This document shows positions 6,015-12,573 of a DNA stretch of 32,000 nucleotides, one piece after another. This stretch comes from Nitrososphaerota archaeon. Lineage in GTDB: Archaea; Thermoproteota; Nitrososphaeria; Nitrososphaerales; Nitrosopumilaceae. Under the pieces are notes generated by a model. It did no database searches. It was not told where the DNA came from and was given only the letters and a program-made list of their open reading frames with translations. A program made the translations under genes and the position numbers. Position 1 is the first letter of the stretch; each line of letters opens with the position of its first letter. The stretch lies in contig JAGWFT010000001.1 of the NCBI GenBank assembly GCA_028867755.1, forward strand, positions 1,161,992 through 1,193,991. The letters run 5' to 3'.

Positions 6015-6854
6015 ATGCTCAATACTGTTTATCGCGATGCCTTGAAGAAACGAGAGGAAGCAAAATCTATCTTCAAGGGAGAAACATTTGAACGCATAAT
6101 CCAGGCGGCCAAAGAAAACTGGGTGGATTATTCTCCGCAGAAGAAGGATTCAGTTATTGCTGGTATAGATAGTAGTTATAACAGTACAAAGTTTCAAGGG
6201 CTTGAACTATGGGTGGTTACTGTGGTATCAATCAAATCAGACGGTCAAATCATAACTGAGATGCACAACCAAGGGCTAGGTCAGCCTGCCCCAGAGCTTG
6301 AGACACAGGCAAGCAAGATGGAGGTAGATGCCTGCATTGCTTCAATTGACAAGGCAGACTTGGTAACACTTGACGGTTCGCTTTATTCACAATTTCTCAC
6401 AAGACAGTCTTCACTTGGTAGTTCTATCACTTTGGCAATCAAAAAGAGAGGAAACGTTGTTTTCATATCAAAGACATCATCAGCAAGAAAACAATTTGAA
6501 AAACTAGGCTCTGCAGCAGGAGATATCTTCTATTACAATCATGCGGTAAAAAGACCTGGCTTTAGTAAGATATTTGTGGATAATTCTCTTGGACCAGGCA
6601 AAGTTGTGTCGTATGTCTATGCAAGACTTAGAGATTCCACACCACTAATCAAGATCGAATTGCTTGGCTCCGGCACTAACGAGAATGACATCAAGTCTCT
6701 TTTGGACAGATTGACAAAAAATAGTGTTGGAGGATATCCGTATGCATTAAAGTTAGCACATGAGAATTGTAAGATAACCAATTCAGATTTATCCAGACTT
6801 GTTAGTCTATACGGACTGACAAATGAGATTGGTTCTAGGGAGGTATTGAATTGA
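6015..6854 (+). CDS. nurA: NurA 5'-3' nuclease
   Basis: 279 aa with IAGIDSSYN and TLDGSL motifs of the NurA domain. It is the first gene of a nurA-herA-mre11-rad50 cluster and overlaps herA by 4 nt. Confidence 0.8.
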   Translation: MLNTVYRDALKKREEAKSIFKGETFERIIQAAKENWVDYSPQKKDSVIAGIDSSYNSTKFQGLELWVVTVVSIKSDGQIITEMHNQGLGQPAPELETQASKMEVDACIASIDKADLVTLDGSLYSQFLTRQSSLGSSITLAIKKRGNVVFISKTSSARKQFEKLGSAAGDIFYYNHAVKRPGFSKIFVDNSLGPGKVVSYVYARLRDSTPLIKIELLGSGTNENDIKSLLDRLTKNSVGGYPYALKLAHENCKITNSDLSRLVSLYGLTNEIGSREVLN

Positions 6855-8371
6855 TAATAGGTGTGGTAATTGGCGAATCAAAGCCAACCGAAGTAACAGC
6901 ACAATCGTCAAAACCTCTTTCTGTTGGAGAATACGTCATAATTGATTCTCACGATGGCAAAATTCTTGGCCTAGTTGAAAAGTCTGCAATATCAAGCGAA
7001 GCACTTACAGATATTAGAAATTTTGATGAAGCAATAGAAAGCAAAGAAGTTGCCGAGATTAATTCTAGAGATAAGAATTACAAAGTAAAAATAGGAATAC
7101 TTGGACTTTTGGACAAGTTGCAAAAAGGACACATGATGATTCCTGCAATTCCACCGCTTCCCGGAACTTCAATTCTCGAAACAACACAGCAAGACTTGGG
7201 AATGATATTTGGACCATCTAGAAACGATTGGATCAGAATAGGCTCACTCTTAAGAAATTCAGACATTGAGGCAAAAATAAACATTAACAAAATTGTATCA
7301 CGACACTTGGCTATTCTTGCAATGACAGGAATGGGAAAGAGCAATCTTGTCTCACTCATAGCAAAACATGTTGCAACACTAAATGGTACACTCATCATAT
7401 TTGACTATCACAATGACTATGAAAATCTAGATGTTTCCAAGATGAACTATATGATGGCAAAGATAAATCCTCGACTTTTGCCTGCAGACAAACTAGCCGA
7501 AGTCATAGAGATTCGTGAAAATGCAGACAAACAGCAAAGAGTCTTGCGAGAATCACTTACAGATTCAGTCAAACAGGCAAAAGAATTTTGGTCGTCTTTA
7601 GAAGAAAATGTTACTGCATTTGGTCATACTACAAAGGGTTATGCAGATAGTGCAAGCAGAGTTTTAGACAAGATAGATGATGCCAAGCATAGGTTTTCAG
7701 ATATTCTAGATCCTGACTGCGGAGACCCTGTAGATCTGATAAAGGAAGGCAGAGTAAACGTATTGAACATAGCAGAACTAAGCGAGCGACAAGCAAATGC
7801 TGGATTATCATACTATTTACAAGAACTATTACAGCAGAGAAAAGAATCAGTCTGGGAAAGAAAGGGCAAGTCTACACATAAAAGAAATTACAAGTTTCTT
7901 GCGCCAATATTTGTCATAATAGAAGAGGCTCATGTGTTCATACCAAAAGGAGAACACACAGATACCAAATATTGGGCCTCAAAGGTAGCAAGAGAAGGTC
8001 GTAAATTTGGAATTGGCCTTGGAGTAGTATCACAAAGACCAAGAAACATAGATCCCAATGTGCTCAGCCAGATGGGGTCTCTTGCAATAATGAAGATTGT
8101 ACAAGACGATGATCAGCAACAGATAGCATCTGCTGCAGAGTCATTAAGTAAAGACCTCCTCTCTCAGCTCTCGTCTTTGAATATTGGCGATGCAGTGCTA
8201 ATTGGACAGTGGGTAAACTTGCCTTCCATAGTTCACATAGACGAAATAAAGAGTAAAAAATCTGGCTCTGATCTTGATGCAGTTTCAGAATGGAACCAGA
8301 CAGACAAATTCAAAGACATTGGAAAGGAAACAACACAAGGGCTAATCCAAAAAGACTTGCTGCTTGATTGA
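6851..8371 (+). CDS. herA: HerA hexameric DNA helicase/translocase
   Basis: 506 aa with Walker A AMTGMGKSN, Walker B FVIIEEAH and an arginine-finger region VSQRP. It lies between nurA and mre11. Confidence 0.9.
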   Translation: MIIGVVIGESKPTEVTAQSSKPLSVGEYVIIDSHDGKILGLVEKSAISSEALTDIRNFDEAIESKEVAEINSRDKNYKVKIGILGLLDKLQKGHMMIPAIPPLPGTSILETTQQDLGMIFGPSRNDWIRIGSLLRNSDIEAKININKIVSRHLAILAMTGMGKSNLVSLIAKHVATLNGTLIIFDYHNDYENLDVSKMNYMMAKINPRLLPADKLAEVIEIRENADKQQRVLRESLTDSVKQAKEFWSSLEENVTAFGHTTKGYADSASRVLDKIDDAKHRFSDILDPDCGDPVDLIKEGRVNVLNIAELSERQANAGLSYYLQELLQQRKESVWERKGKSTHKRNYKFLAPIFVIIEEAHVFIPKGEHTDTKYWASKVAREGRKFGIGLGVVSQRPRNIDPNVLSQMGSLAIMKIVQDDDQQQIASAAESLSKDLLSQLSSLNIGDAVLIGQWVNLPSIVHIDEIKSKKSGSDLDAVSEWNQTDKFKDIGKETTQGLIQKDLLLD

Positions 8372-9527
8372 GATGATTTTTTCACACATTTCTGATACAC
8401 ATCTTGGTTTTGTACAATATCACTCAGAAGAACGTGAAGAAGACATCTACCGTGCATTTAAACAAGCCATAGACATTTCAATAAAAGACCATGTGGATTT
8501 TGTAATTTTCGCAGGAGATATTTTTCATGTGCCAAATCCAAGTGGAAAGGCAATAGTAGTGCTAGCAAATGCCCTAAAGAGGCTAAAACAAAACAACATA
8601 GATTCATTTTTCATCTTGGGGGAGCATGACATTAGTAGAATAAGAGGCGTTCCTGTTCCATGGGTCTACCACAATCTAGAATTTTCCAAATACATCGGAA
8701 ACGGCAAATCAGTTCTATACAAAGATGTCCTGATCCACGGATTTGACAAGAAAAGAAAAAGCGAGATCCACATATTTGAAGAAGAGTTTTCAAAAGCAGA
8801 TGCAGAGGCGAAAAATCACAGAGGACACAAGATACTGGTGCTACATCAAGGAATTTCAGAAATAAACAAATTTGCAGGAGAGATAAATTCAACAGATCTC
8901 CCAAAAAATTTTACATATTATGCGATGGGGCATCTTCATGACAAAAACCTAAAAAAGTTTGCACATCTTGGAGGTCCCTTGGCATACCCAGGCTCTATTG
9001 AGATTACATCAAGTGAGACAATAAAAGAAACAGAAAAAGGGTTTTTTGAAGTGGATATATCAAAGGCTGAAGCATCGCCAAACTGGATTAAACTAGATAC
9101 AAGGCCACAGGTCTCTTCGAGGATCTCAGTTGACAAGCTTTCTGATGAGATCAGCACACTTTCTGAGAAGATTAAATCATATAACAGAAAACCAATAGTT
9201 GAGATAAGAATAACTGGAGATGTTTTAGAGCCAGGATTTATCCAAACACAGATCTCACGACTATCTGAACTAACCCTGCGGTGTTTTTGGAAGCATGTTT
9301 CGCCTGATCAAAACAATGGTTCAGTATTCATTGAAAGACCAATAAAGATAGAAGACGAGATATACAAAATAGCAAAAGATATTCTTGGTTCAACTGAGCT
9401 TGCAAATTTTGCCATAAATGAGTTACTGCCGCTTCTCTCAAAAGGAAACATCGAAGAGGCAAATGTTGCAATCAATGAAAACTTTGTACAATTCAAAAAG
9501 GGAATGAGGAATGCTACGATCAGTTGA
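8364..9527 (+). CDS. mre11: Mre11 DNA double-strand break repair nuclease
   Basis: Calcineurin-like phosphoesterase motifs HISDTHLG, GDIFH, GEHD, LHQG and GHLH. The start is either TTG at 8364 (overlapping herA) or ATG at 8373 (MIFSHISDTHLG). Confidence 0.9.
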   Translation: MIEMIFSHISDTHLGFVQYHSEEREEDIYRAFKQAIDISIKDHVDFVIFAGDIFHVPNPSGKAIVVLANALKRLKQNNIDSFFILGEHDISRIRGVPVPWVYHNLEFSKYIGNGKSVLYKDVLIHGFDKKRKSEIHIFEEEFSKADAEAKNHRGHKILVLHQGISEINKFAGEINSTDLPKNFTYYAMGHLHDKNLKKFAHLGGPLAYPGSIEITSSETIKETEKGFFEVDISKAEASPNWIKLDTRPQVSSRISVDKLSDEISTLSEKIKSYNRKPIVEIRITGDVLEPGFIQTQISRLSELTLRCFWKHVSPDQNNGSVFIERPIKIEDEIYKIAKDILGSTELANFAINELLPLLSKGNIEEANVAINENFVQFKKGMRNATIS

Positions 9528-11589
9528 GATAGCGAATTTTCTCTCTCATTCAAACACTAGGCTAGAGTTTGAAAATGGAGTGACAGTATTTGTTGGACCA
9601 AATGGAGCTGGCAAGTCTAGCATAATAGATGCCATAACATTTGCGTTGTTTGGAGAACACATTAGAAAGTCTACAAAAGGCCTATTGCGCAGGGGAAGCA
9701 GTCAAGCATACGCCAAAGTAGAGTTCTCCATAGGAAACAGACAATTCAAGGCAGTTCGTAAAATAGACACAAAAGGAACTGTATCAGCTCAGCTTTATGA
9801 AAAAATTAACGGAGAGACAGTTCCACTTGCTGCAGGTGAGCGAAAACAATTTGGTGAATCCATGACACAGACAATAGAATCTCTAATAGGGCTTGATTTT
9901 GAGAAACTCAAAGTAGCATCCATTGTACAGCAAGGTGAGCTACAATCAATCATTGAAGCAGACCCAAAAAAATTCAAAGAACTTGTCAATGCAATAATTG
10001 GAATAGACAAGCTTGATACTGCATATGAAATTATGAGAAAAACCATTGATGCGTTTAGAATGTCTGTGAGAACAAGAATAGACTATGATGATACCAACAT
10101 AGAGTCTCTACAAACCAAGACAGACTCGATATCAAAAGAAATTGCATCCTTGGAGCCCCAAAAGAGCAAACTTGAAGAAGAAAAGGCAATTCAGGAACGA
10201 GAATTTACTACACTACAGAGCAAGATAGAGAGCGAGGCACCAAAAGAGCTAAAGATAAAAGAGATAGAAAGTAGAAAAGATGAACTTGCTCTATATCTAA
10301 GAAATGCTGTAACATCCATCAAAAGAGAGATTGCCGAGAAGGAGCGAAAATTTGCAGATTGCTCTAATAGCTTACCAATTTTATCCCTCAAGCCACAGAT
10401 AGAATCCGAGTCAAGACAAATACAACATGACATTGAACAAATACGAATAGAATCAACAGACATAGGCGAAAAGATAGCCAAGATAAAAGGACAGCAAGAG
10501 ATTGCTGGCAAGTTGCATATGATAGATGGCAAATGTCCTGTATGTGATTCCAAAGTAGACCACATCAATCCCTTGTTTGAAGAAGAACACTTACGTGCAG
10601 AACTTGATATTCTTGGAAAAAAGATGGTAGTTCTCTCTCAAGAAGAAGTTGTTATTCAAAACAAGAAAAAAGAGATAGATGCAAAGACTCAACAGATCAT
10701 AAAGGCAGAAAGCGTCCTGTCCTCAAACAACATAAAAAACCAAAATGACTTGGTAAGATTAAAAGAAGAAATTTCAAGTTTACAAACTAATATCAAACAA
10801 GTACCCCTCGAGGTCAGCACAACAGGAAATCTAATGCAATTTGCAATAGATGAATATTCAACTGATGCAATCAGAACTATATCATCACTAATAGAAGAGA
10901 CAAAAGACTTTGATGTTGCAAATTTTAGAAATCTCAAATCAAAACTAGAACCACAGCGAAAACTTCTCAATACAATATATCAAGAACTTGGTGCAATGAC
11001 CAATAGGCTAAAGTCACATAAAGAAGAATCAGAAAAAATTTCACAGATACTAGGAGAGTTGCATTATGTAAGACAATACGTCTCAAGTCTTGAGACCATC
11101 AGAGGCCAGATTTACAATAGAGATGGCCCTGTTGCTACAAGTCTTCGCTCGTGGGCACTTGGAATGATATCGCAGAAAGCCTCAGAGTACTTGGCTACAT
11201 TTAACGTAAAGATTCAGAGAATCAACCTAGAGGACAAGGCAAGAGATATTGGAATTACGTGTTACTCTGGTAACACAACACTGGATTTAGAATCATTGAG
11301 CGGTGGAGAAAAGGTCAGTGTAGCACTTGCATTGCGCCTTGGCATGGCTCACCTCATGGGTTCGTCTCACCTGAATTTTATCATTCTTGACGAGCCGACA
11401 ACACATTTGGACCAAGAGAGAAGAAAGTCTCTTGTAAGTGTGCTCTCACAGGCTTTTGAATCAAATGTGGATGCAATATCGCAGTTTATCATAATTACAC
11501 ATGACTCTGAAATCTTTGAAAACTCTAACATTAATGCAATATATGATTTCAAATCAACACAAGAAGGAACACTGGTTACTCCAATTTAG
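9511..11589 (+). CDS. rad50: Rad50 ATPase (SMC-like)
   Basis: N-terminal Walker A GPNGAGKSS, long heptad-rich middle, CPVC zinc hook near mid-protein, C-terminal signature LSGGE and Walker B FIILDEPT. It overlaps mre11 by 17 nt. At 692 aa it is compact for a Rad50. Confidence 0.9.
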   Translation: MLRSVEIANFLSHSNTRLEFENGVTVFVGPNGAGKSSIIDAITFALFGEHIRKSTKGLLRRGSSQAYAKVEFSIGNRQFKAVRKIDTKGTVSAQLYEKINGETVPLAAGERKQFGESMTQTIESLIGLDFEKLKVASIVQQGELQSIIEADPKKFKELVNAIIGIDKLDTAYEIMRKTIDAFRMSVRTRIDYDDTNIESLQTKTDSISKEIASLEPQKSKLEEEKAIQEREFTTLQSKIESEAPKELKIKEIESRKDELALYLRNAVTSIKREIAEKERKFADCSNSLPILSLKPQIESESRQIQHDIEQIRIESTDIGEKIAKIKGQQEIAGKLHMIDGKCPVCDSKVDHINPLFEEEHLRAELDILGKKMVVLSQEEVVIQNKKKEIDAKTQQIIKAESVLSSNNIKNQNDLVRLKEEISSLQTNIKQVPLEVSTTGNLMQFAIDEYSTDAIRTISSLIEETKDFDVANFRNLKSKLEPQRKLLNTIYQELGAMTNRLKSHKEESEKISQILGELHYVRQYVSSLETIRGQIYNRDGPVATSLRSWALGMISQKASEYLATFNVKIQRINLEDKARDIGITCYSGNTTLDLESLSGGEKVSVALALRLGMAHLMGSSHLNFIILDEPTTHLDQERRKSLVSVLSQAFESNVDAISQFIIITHDSEIFENSNINAIYDFKSTQEGTLVTPI

Positions 11590-12080
11590 CCGCCAGTCAT
11601 CTTTGCAAATTTTTCGTTCTTGCAAAGACTTTCCATGAATTTTAGGTTAGATAGTGCAACTACTGCAGAATCACGTACCTGTTCACTTGAATCCAAGAGC
11701 GCTTTTTGTAGTGTCTCCTTTGCGTCCTGAGATCCAATAACTCCAAGGGCAACAGCAGCTTCGTGTCGTACAAACAGACTAGGATCGTTGCGTGTTGCAT
11801 CTTCTAGTGGACCTATTCCGCTTCTCAGACACATCTGCCCCAGAGAAAACGCCGCCTCGTGTCTTACCAACTCGTTAGAATCATTCTTTAGTATATTTGC
11901 AATATACGGAACAACATCTTCTCCGCCCATATCTACCAGTATGCAAACAGCTCTGCATCTAATTACAAAATCTTTGTCACCTAATAGAGTAACAAAGTAT
12001 TGCTTGTCCTTTTTTTCATATCTTTCTTCCATTTCAGATAGGAGCTCAAGGCGGCCATTAGGAATAAGTTCCATGCACAC
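11586..12080 (-). CDS. HEAT-repeat protein resembling one half of deoxyhypusine hydroxylase (two His-Glu motifs)
   Basis: 164 aa with four HEAT/PBS-lyase repeats. The two central repeats read VRHEAAFSLGQM and VRHEAAVALGVIG. See findings. Confidence 0.75.
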   Translation of the reverse strand: MCMELIPNGRLELLSEMEERYEKKDKQYFVTLLGDKDFVIRCRAVCILVDMGGEDVVPYIANILKNDSNELVRHEAAFSLGQMCLRSGIGPLEDATRNDPSLFVRHEAAVALGVIGSQDAKETLQKALLDSSEQVRDSAVVALSNLKFMESLCKNEKFAKMTGG

Positions 12081-12114
12081 AATTTTATAATCGCATATTT
12101 ATTTCAATGACTAG

Positions 12115-12573
12115 ATGAGTCGATTACGATACTGGAAATTAACAGTGGAGGATCTCAGAAAGGCGCAGTATGATCCAAAAAAGGTTCTCATCTGGGAAAT
12201 AAAATGTACCATAGATGAGCAAGGTACACATTTTGGAGTATTTTGTTACAGAAACGGTACTCCGTGGGATTATGCATCTATCCACGGAATTGTCTTTTAT
12301 CACAATCAAATAAGCAAAGAAGAGATAGACAAAATAACAAATTTCCTAAAGGGCAAGTTTGGTGGCGAACCAGCAGAAAAGGGTAGCAGGATATTTTTGA
12401 AGGACTCAAAGGAGATCTATCAACCAAAGGAGATAGCAGACTTGGCAGTTCAGCTGGGAGATACTTTTGAGGCAAGCACAGAACTAACGGTAGAACTTGA
12501 GAACTTTACAATTCCTGAGCAGGAACAAAGCAACTTGCCTTCAAGCAAAATTCTCCCCATACCTGGCAAGTAG
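12115..12573 (+). CDS. Hypothetical protein
   Basis: 152-aa ORF with protein-like composition and no competing frame. It is divergent from the HEAT gene with only 34 nt between starts. No motif recognised. Confidence 0.6.
   Translation: MSRLRYWKLTVEDLRKAQYDPKKVLIWEIKCTIDEQGTHFGVFCYRNGTPWDYASIHGIVFYHNQISKEEIDKITNFLKGKFGGEPAEKGSRIFLKDSKEIYQPKEIADLAVQLGDTFEASTELTVELENFTIPEQEQSNLPSSKILPIPGK

Follow-up and report, generated by a model that had tools for sequence, protein, structure and literature searches.

A 32,000-nucleotide stretch of a Nitrososphaerota archaeon (contig JAGWFT010000001.1, positions 1,161,992 to 1,193,991; the whole stretch is called the window below) carries a gene for a small protein of four HEAT repeats with two His-Glu (HE) dyads, here named the HE-HEAT protein. 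It is the only gene on its strand at this place, converging on NurA-HerA-Mre11-Rad50 and diverging from a gene for a 152-aa protein, beyond which lie TatC, TatA and PurP (Table 1). The HE-HEAT protein is probably a half-size enzyme of the deoxyhypusine hydroxylase (DOHH) type, predicted to be an iron enzyme, presumably homodimeric, that hydroxylates the translation factor aIF5A. This prediction builds on the type of fold, on a strictly conserved residue pattern that aligns with the DOHH ligands, on a natural fusion of two such units and, in other lineages, on linkage to genes for deoxyhypusine synthase (DHS).

Table 1. Features of the HE-HEAT locus, in window coordinates; residues are numbered in the 162-aa protein.
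Feature	Coordinates	Strand	Remarks
HE-HEAT coding sequence, 162 aa	11586..12074	-	ATG 12074-12072, stop TAA 11588-11586
In-frame GTG-TGC upstream of ATG	12075..12080	-	start of the mechanical ORF, 164 aa
N-terminal helix, residues 6-20, before the repeats	12015..12059	-	invariant M15-E16 in 'EME.RY' motif (family alignment)
HEAT repeat 1, residues 24-50	11925..12005	-	helix B = IRCRAVCILVD, concave-face C-R
HEAT repeat 2, residues 52-82	11829..11921	-	helix B = VRHEAAFSLGQM; HE dyad 1 and invariant G79-Q80
Codons CAC GAG = H72-E73	11856..11861	-	aligned to human DOHH H56-E57, H207-E208
HEAT repeat 3, residues 84-114	11733..11825	-	helix B = VRHEAAVALGVIG; HE dyad 2
Codons CAC GAA = H104-E105	11760..11765	-	aligned to human DOHH H89-E90, H240-E241
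HEAT repeat 4, residues 116-149	11628..11729	-	helix B = VRDSAVVALSNL, concave-face D-S
C-terminal tail	11589..11627	-	ends in conserved K(M/K)TGG
Divergent intergenic region, 34 bp, shared with the 152-aa gene	12081..12114	.	A+T-rich
Complete NurA-HerA-Mre11-Rad50 DNA-end-resection operon	6015-11589	+	Rad50 stop overlaps HE-HEAT stop by 4 nt
152-aa protein gene, divergent from the HE-HEAT gene	12115..12573	+	no Pfam or NCBIfam match

The ATG at 12074 was taken as the start, and the 162-aa numbering used, because all 120 close orthologues listed begin at this Met, each with a called length of ~162 aa. By this comparison it is most likely the real start, and the GTG-TGC upstream of it is probably not translated. 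Residues H72, E73, H104 and E105 correspond to H74, E75, H106 and E107 of a first-pass annotation, which had read the open reading frame 11586..12080 (-) as a 164-aa product of four repeats. The frame and the four helices it quoted (the helix B entries of Table 1) were confirmed in the translation, and the two His-Glu codon pairs were found exactly as claimed, at 11861-11856 and 11765-11760 and 32 residues apart; of the product described, the four repeats stood and the length gave way to the likelier 162 aa.

In Pfam the protein was matched by HEAT_2 (E=7e-23, 81.1 bits, gathering threshold 27.7), by HEAT_PBS (50.6 bits, gathering threshold 20.9) and by HEAT, that is, by generic HEAT families only. 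Judged by these matches it belongs to the HEAT_PBS superfamily (PF03130 / PF13646), with an all-alpha HEAT-repeat fold. Its closest relatives among the matches listed, at 91% identity, came from Nitrosotalea, an acidophilic ammonia-oxidizing archaeon of the Nitrosopumilales. The N-terminal helix, which recurs in the AlphaFold2 (AF2) models of the homologous half of the fusion described below, is possibly a contact to a second subunit or to a partner. The end of the C-terminal tail is clade-specific: K(M/K)TGG is found in Nitrosopumilales, Caldarchaeum and HR01, and KMPHP in Nitrososphaerales.

The two dyads sit on helix B of repeats 2 and 3. Both dyads and their 32-residue spacing were present in 120 of 120 close orthologues listed and in 120 of 120 distant members, the latter retrieved with a profile built from the two homologues that had diverged most. 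Altogether both dyads were kept in 242 of 242 family sequences examined, down to ~44% identity and across Nitrosopumilales, Nitrososphaerales, the deep-branching archaeon HR01 and Candidatus Caldarchaeum, so that conservation of HE in orthologues, as the first-pass annotation requires, was borne out. The Gly-Gln after dyad 1 was likewise kept in all 242. All named hosts among the matches listed belong to the Nitrososphaerota, apart from one DPANN contig. These lineages are largely aerobic, which fits an O2-dependent enzyme; ammonia-oxidizing archaea (AOA) are obligate aerobes (e.g., PMC4129164). One family sequence falls outside this count, a 233-aa metagenomic protein (P0246) with degraded dyads (HH-G, P-E) and aberrant termini, the sole member seen to lack intact dyads; it probably represents a copy in decay or a faulty assembly.

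For a background frequency, 140 long generic HEAT proteins, the best matches among 1.8 billion cluster representatives, were sampled; they yielded 1629 canonical helix-B motifs, in which the two positions after the conserved Arg were compared. HE occupied both positions in nine motifs (0.55%), and the positions were otherwise highly variable. Taken with the conservation in the family, this frequency rules out a chance origin of the dyads. Five of the nine background cases lie within a single 1029-aa protein (P0224) with five near-identical 'WVRHEAAQALG' repeats, in which HE was spread by repeat amplification.

In DOHH, eight HEAT repeats form a symmetrical 4+4 dyad with four strictly conserved HE motifs (PMC3306375, PMC8153317). 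Its iron ligands are H56, H89, E90, H207, H240 and E241 (PMC3306375, PMC8153317), so that each arm supplies the ligands of one iron, two His and a Glu. The human DOHH sequence used as query was identical to PDB 4d4z over residues 1-289, and the human motifs that the first-pass annotation had cited proved correct against it. By BLASTP the HE-HEAT protein was 35% identical to the N-terminal arm over 113 aa and 37% identical to the C-terminal arm over 104 aa. In both alignments the two dyads fell on the HE pairs of the arm (H72-E73 on H56-E57 or H207-E208, H104-E105 on H89-E90 or H240-E241), as the claimed match to one DOHH half implied. By this alignment the chain carries one DOHH arm's worth of ligands. 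Human DOHH was also the best natural sequence match in the PDB (E=3.6e-19, 72 bits).

The correspondence extends beyond the ligands. At the two positions after the helix-B Arg, the four repeats read C-R, H-E, H-E and D-S in the window protein, F-R, H-E, H-E and E-T in the human N-terminal arm (repeats 1 to 4), and Y-R, H-E, H-E and E-S in the C-terminal arm (repeats 5 to 8); in the window protein and in both arms the first dyad is followed by an aromatic residue and by GQ. This concave-face pattern holds in a ~47-species DOHH alignment (supplement of PMC3306375) spanning animals, fungi, plants, kinetoplastids, oomycetes, microsporidia and Plasmodium, the exception being the repeat-5 Arg, which is variable among plants and in some protists. 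On the archaeal side, Nitrososphaerales members have V-H in repeat 1 (Arg to His) and G-S in repeat 4 (acidic to Gly), the Ser being invariant across the family.

Gene associations in other lineages point to the hypusine pathway. In archaeon HR01, 75 bp separate the HE-HEAT gene from a divergently transcribed DHS gene whose product has the SWGK catalytic-lysine motif, and an independent ENA contig repeats the arrangement; in Caldarchaeum a DHS gene lies 7.2 kb downstream. The tally over eight sampled lineages was two tight linkages and one loose one. As a rough estimate, two to three DHS linkages in eight would arise by chance with a probability of ~1e-3 to 1e-5 if a position within a few genes of DHS has a chance of <1% per genome; the HR01 and Caldarchaeum linkages may not be independent of each other. 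The HR01 locus is set among genes for multicopper oxidase, SCO1 and peroxiredoxin. Beside its HE-HEAT gene lie two adjacent, overlapping, convergent DHS paralogues (L096 6000-7925, also L097), one of 303 aa with EAITWHK and one of 345 aa with EEGKSWGK.

A natural tandem fusion was found on one DPANN contig (P0121; loci L081 and L086): 363 aa with two units, eight repeats and four HE dyads. Its gene ends a co-directional row of DHS (PF01916), Orn/Arg decarboxylase, CN-hydrolase and agmatine deiminase genes, flanked on both sides by IF5A-like genes (TIGR00037, E=2e-7 and 6e-5). The DHS of this contig is 73-77% identical to that of Woesearchaeota and Nanoarchaeota, and the contig is therefore of a DPANN archaeon. 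Either half of the fusion shares 61-62% identity with the window and AOA protein, and the halves are 57% identical to each other; since each half is thus nearer to the AOA protein than to the other half, these identities suggest that a unit acquired from an AOA-like source was then duplicated and fused. As a 'Rosetta stone', the fusion indicates that two units work together.

Several features of the contig and its relatives are recorded beside this. The two diverged IF5A-like paralogues (L086 4857-5468 (-) and 11222-11902 (-)) have loops, LKAGKHGGPK and AKTGKQGHIK, that resemble the hypusination loop, and each has a long acidic N-terminus, probably disordered; they could be unconventional DHS substrates. 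Residues 1-45 of the fusion (L086 10001-10135) are hydrophobic and signal-peptide-like, with no counterpart in single-unit homologues; they may be a genuine targeting signal or stem from a miscalled start. Next to the cluster (L086 3480-4727 (-) and 1-3322 (-)) lie genes for a GBBH/TauD-type Fe(II)/2-oxoglutarate dioxygenase, for cNMP-binding proteins and for a protein of >1000 aa joining HEAT/Adaptin and cNMP-binding domains, a gene content unusual for a DPANN genome. On Woesearchaeota contigs (L089-L092, ~7001-8984) a conserved, tightly packed pair of DHS and Orn/Arg decarboxylase genes links polyamine supply to deoxyhypusine synthesis. Scans of metagenomes and viruses for further fusions returned two short single-unit fragments of AOA type only, and nothing viral.

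The mechanism proposed for the HE-HEAT protein follows that of human DOHH; iron binding, dimerization, use of O2, catalysis and the aIF5A substrate are all features that we infer by analogy. Each 162-aa chain would form one four-HEAT-repeat arm, equal to one half of the eight-repeat DOHH. On its concave face H72, H104 and E105 would bind one Fe(II) per chain, and E73 of each chain would help to hold the deoxyhypusine amine. With one four-repeat unit per chain the protein must dimerize to build a di-iron site, all four dyads being present only in the dimer. Two chains would thus associate about a two-fold axis with their concave faces opposed, and their two irons would form a di-iron centre. 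This centre would activate O2, and the deoxyhypusine placed on aIF5A by DHS would be hydroxylated to hypusine.

A number of results weigh against this proposal and bear at the same time on its alternatives; the first concern gene order. No DHS or aIF5A gene was found within 8 kb in 80 AOA loci or in the window, nor close to the gene in Nitrososphaerales and the clades of P0133, P0165 and P0517, so that five of the eight lineages, the window's included, are without DHS linkage. The DHS/fusion cluster of the DPANN contig is a singleton so far, and the nearest relatives of its DHS keep the DHS-decarboxylase pair only, without a HEAT gene. No measurement distinguishing hypusine from deoxyhypusine in Nitrososphaerota was found in the searched literature. 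In the P0165 and HR01 clades (L083 2700-4698; L096 8498-9554) the HE-HEAT gene is followed by a conserved LDcluster4 (LOG-like) gene and a ferritin gene, and in L083 it is preceded by NifU_N, which makes an iron-related neighborhood; NifU and ferritin neighbors would also suit a different iron-related role.

Structure prediction was equivocal. The natural fusion was modeled with AF2 as a stand-in for two paired units. Without an alignment (pLDDT 70, pTM 0.67), human DOHH (4d4z) was the sole global match of the model among PDB chains, with TM scores of 0.62 (query) and 0.77 (target) over 306 columns, and continuous-solenoid alphaReps reached TM <=0.49. With a 72-sequence alignment, whose family rows fell on the C-terminal half only, the halves were predicted as helix pairs at pLDDT >90 (pTM 0.56), and the match to 4d4z was TM 0.33/0.41, no better than that to alphaReps. 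Each half superposes well on alphaReps. The face-to-face, DOHH-like arrangement is therefore not robust across the models, and structure was not counted as support. AF2 cannot place bridging irons. Loss of iron has been reported to change the conformation of DOHH (PMC8153317).

The foremost of the alternatives, though itself unlikely, is a HEAT protein that binds iron or another metal for a different job, as a mono- or dinuclear oxygenase acting on another substrate or in the chaperoning, buffering or sensing of iron. No dimer would be needed for a 2-His-1-carboxylate site, which the two His and the Glu within one chain could make up. Such a role would accommodate dyads that are conserved where most lineages lack DHS linkage, the NifU_N and ferritin neighbors of the P0165 and HR01 clades, and a clamshell of the fusion that the second AF2 model did not reproduce. 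It leaves unexplained the matches to DOHH that are not ligands, namely GQ, the aromatic residue, the acidic-Ser pair and E73, which is substrate-binding in DOHH, as well as the DHS adjacency in HR01 and a two-unit fusion lying in a DHS/IF5A-like cluster.

Overall similarity, the other ground for doubt, was ranked against the HEAT domains of the 140 generic proteins, with eight family members added in searches with DOHH queries. Scored with a hidden Markov model (HMM) of the family, the human N-terminal arm reached 61.1 bits and rank 26 of 1428 domains and the C-terminal arm rank 82 of 1428; changing HE to RA in DOHH cost ~16 bits and dropped the arms to ranks 252 and 415. On these scores the HE-HEAT protein as a whole resembles the best generic HEAT proteins no less than it resembles DOHH. 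The notion that raw similarity by itself points to DOHH was discarded: a 50%-clustered search was swamped by giant HEAT proteins, and the family profile scored many generic domains higher. With the DOHH arms as query, the family took ranks 1-7 (N-terminal arm) and 1-5 (C-terminal arm). After HE had been mutated in the family its members fell at ranks 11-107 of 1612 and 10-106 of 1257, respectively, roughly the top 7-8%, with the exception of the N-terminal unit of the fusion, which dropped to rank 329 with the N-terminal arm as query. The first-pass placement of the protein nearer to DOHH than to generic HEAT proteins thus stands with DOHH halves as query and does not with the family profile. 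Neither Pfam nor NCBIfam has a dedicated DOHH model. The simplest reading of these rankings is that the HE-HEAT family lies near the HEAT_PBS consensus and that DOHH branched off and diverged, its nearest prokaryotic relatives in the sample being this family, a pattern expected for an evolutionary intermediate, short of proof.

A further alternative is an ordinary, non-catalytic HEAT_PBS scaffold or adaptor, its HE residues serving protein-protein contacts; in its favor, Pfam recognizes generic HEAT families only, designed consensus alphaReps and giant HEAT proteins score equally or higher, and the halves of the fusion superpose well on alphaReps. Such a role is nonetheless quite improbable, because two His-Glu pairs are invariant phylum-wide where repeats of this class are otherwise hypervariable, and match a known metal site position for position, and because the NCBIfam lyase and NblB models stay far below their cut-offs (37 vs 300 bits). 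The least probable of the alternatives, a non-hydroxylating regulator or assembly factor that binds DHS or aIF5A, whether a DOHH-like pseudoenzyme or an evolutionary precursor, would suit a DHS linkage that comes without direct evidence of catalysis and the tolerance of yeast to loss of DOHH, by which hydroxylation is not always needed (PMC8153317), but loss of catalytic residues is usual in pseudoenzymes, whereas this family keeps all four without exception, and the single degenerate member, P0246, looks like a decaying copy. None of these alternatives explains the ligand and non-ligand DOHH matches, the fusion and the DHS adjacency as well as a half-size DOHH-type enzyme does.

A wider scenario built on the DOHH-type enzyme is offered only tentatively. 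The 162-aa proteins would be the ancestral, homodimeric form of DOHH, and Nitrososphaerota would fully hypusinate aIF5A by means of an O2-dependent di-iron site across the dimer. The eukaryotic enzyme would have arisen by tandem duplication and fusion, an event replayed independently in one DPANN archaeon, and the complete two-step hypusine pathway would predate eukaryotes.

In the window itself, the Rad50 and HE-HEAT genes keep their tail-to-tail order in 61 of 62 informative AOA loci; this synteny was set aside as a functional link because the genes are convergent. The intergenic region toward the 152-aa gene has, by sequence reading, TATA-like boxes ~25-28 nt 5' of each ATG, which suggests leaderless transcripts in both directions. 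The HE-HEAT and 152-aa genes were paired in 43 of 80 AOA loci, the pair being absent from marine AOA and some Nitrosotalea. A 48%-identical homologue of the 152-aa protein occupies the same divergent position in a P0133-clade locus (L102 7437-7895 (-)) where all other neighbors differ. Because the divergent pairing recurs in a different genomic setting, the 152-aa protein is considered a possible functional partner of the HE-HEAT protein, its membership in the system being uncertain. No hypusine, polyamine or iron genes were found elsewhere in the 32-kb window.

That archaea have DHS and lack DOHH has been repeated for about twenty years, together with the observation that some archaea contain hypusine (PMC5178350, PMC6105217, PMC8153317, PMC7432094), and papers up to 2022 report no archaeal DOHH orthologue (PMC5178350, PMC6105217, PMC3306375, PMC8153317, PMC7432094). 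Searches of the literature joining DOHH or hypusine with Thaumarchaeota, Asgard archaea or AOA returned nothing relevant. Automatic, orthology-based annotation at JGI independently labels many family proteins 'deoxyhypusine monooxygenase', so that a DOHH-type label is already in databases, without a published analysis or test. The first-pass statement that no DOHH had been assigned in archaea accordingly holds for papers and not for database labels. Its proposal of this gene as a candidate for the missing archaeal DOHH is supported in part, and is strengthened by the DHS linkage and the eight-repeat fusion in other lineages. Hypusine has been reported in Sulfolobales and in anaerobically grown archaea, that is, made without oxygen (PMC5178350, PMC7432094). 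The family cannot be a universal archaeal solution, because its listed hosts are only Nitrososphaerota and one DPANN contig and hypusine occurs in Sulfolobales and anaerobes as well; hypusine formation there stays unsolved by this family and probably follows another route.

What the family offers is a concrete, clonable candidate in a globally abundant phylum. If the prediction is right, it would be the first di-iron oxygenase with an active site across a homodimer of HEAT-repeat arms. Eukaryotic DOHH would then be seen to have originated through duplication and fusion, and complete hypusination would be set in archaea related to the neighborhood of the eukaryotic ancestor.

Several known systems share the repeat type. 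With the phycobiliprotein lyases and NblB (CpcE/CpcF, CpeY, NblB) the protein has in common PBS-lyase HEAT-like repeats; identity with them was rejected on NCBIfam scores of 37.2 for NblB (cut-off 300), 18.3 for CpcF (cut-off 220), 16.8 for CpcE (cut-off 330) and 16.3 for CpeY (cut-off 600). The hosts of the family are non-photosynthetic archaea without phycobilisomes. Prokaryotic HEAT_PBS proteins and the alphaReps designed from them (MTH187, 1te4; E. coli YibA, 1oyz; alphaRep 3ltj) resemble the protein in repeat type and length and give the highest raw sequence and local structure scores to the family. Neither the HE dyads nor the other residues of the concave-face signature occur in them, the corresponding positions being hypervariable, and against the window protein YibA scored 27.8 bits and MTH187 14.8 bits, compared with 72 bits for DOHH.

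With respect to DOHH (human, PDB 4d4z/4d50; yeast Lia1), the window protein differs in being one four-repeat unit of 162 aa, where DOHH has eight repeats in one ~300-aa chain. It thus departs from one defining feature of DOHH (EC 1.14.99.29), eight repeats in a single chain, and is a variant more than a plain member; the rare fusion alone has the 4+4 arrangement, with the HE, GQ and D-S signature of the window protein in each half and two units in one chain. The window protein also has an extra N-terminal helix and the K(M/K)TGG tail, is without the inter-domain loop and, compared with DOHH, is far less removed from the HEAT_PBS consensus. It is like DOHH in its HEAT_PBS-type repeats, in HE dyads placed on repeats 2 and 3 of a four-repeat unit and 32-33 residues apart, in equivalents of H56, H89 and E90 together with E57, in the GQ after dyad 1 and in the acidic-Ser/Thr pair of repeat 4.

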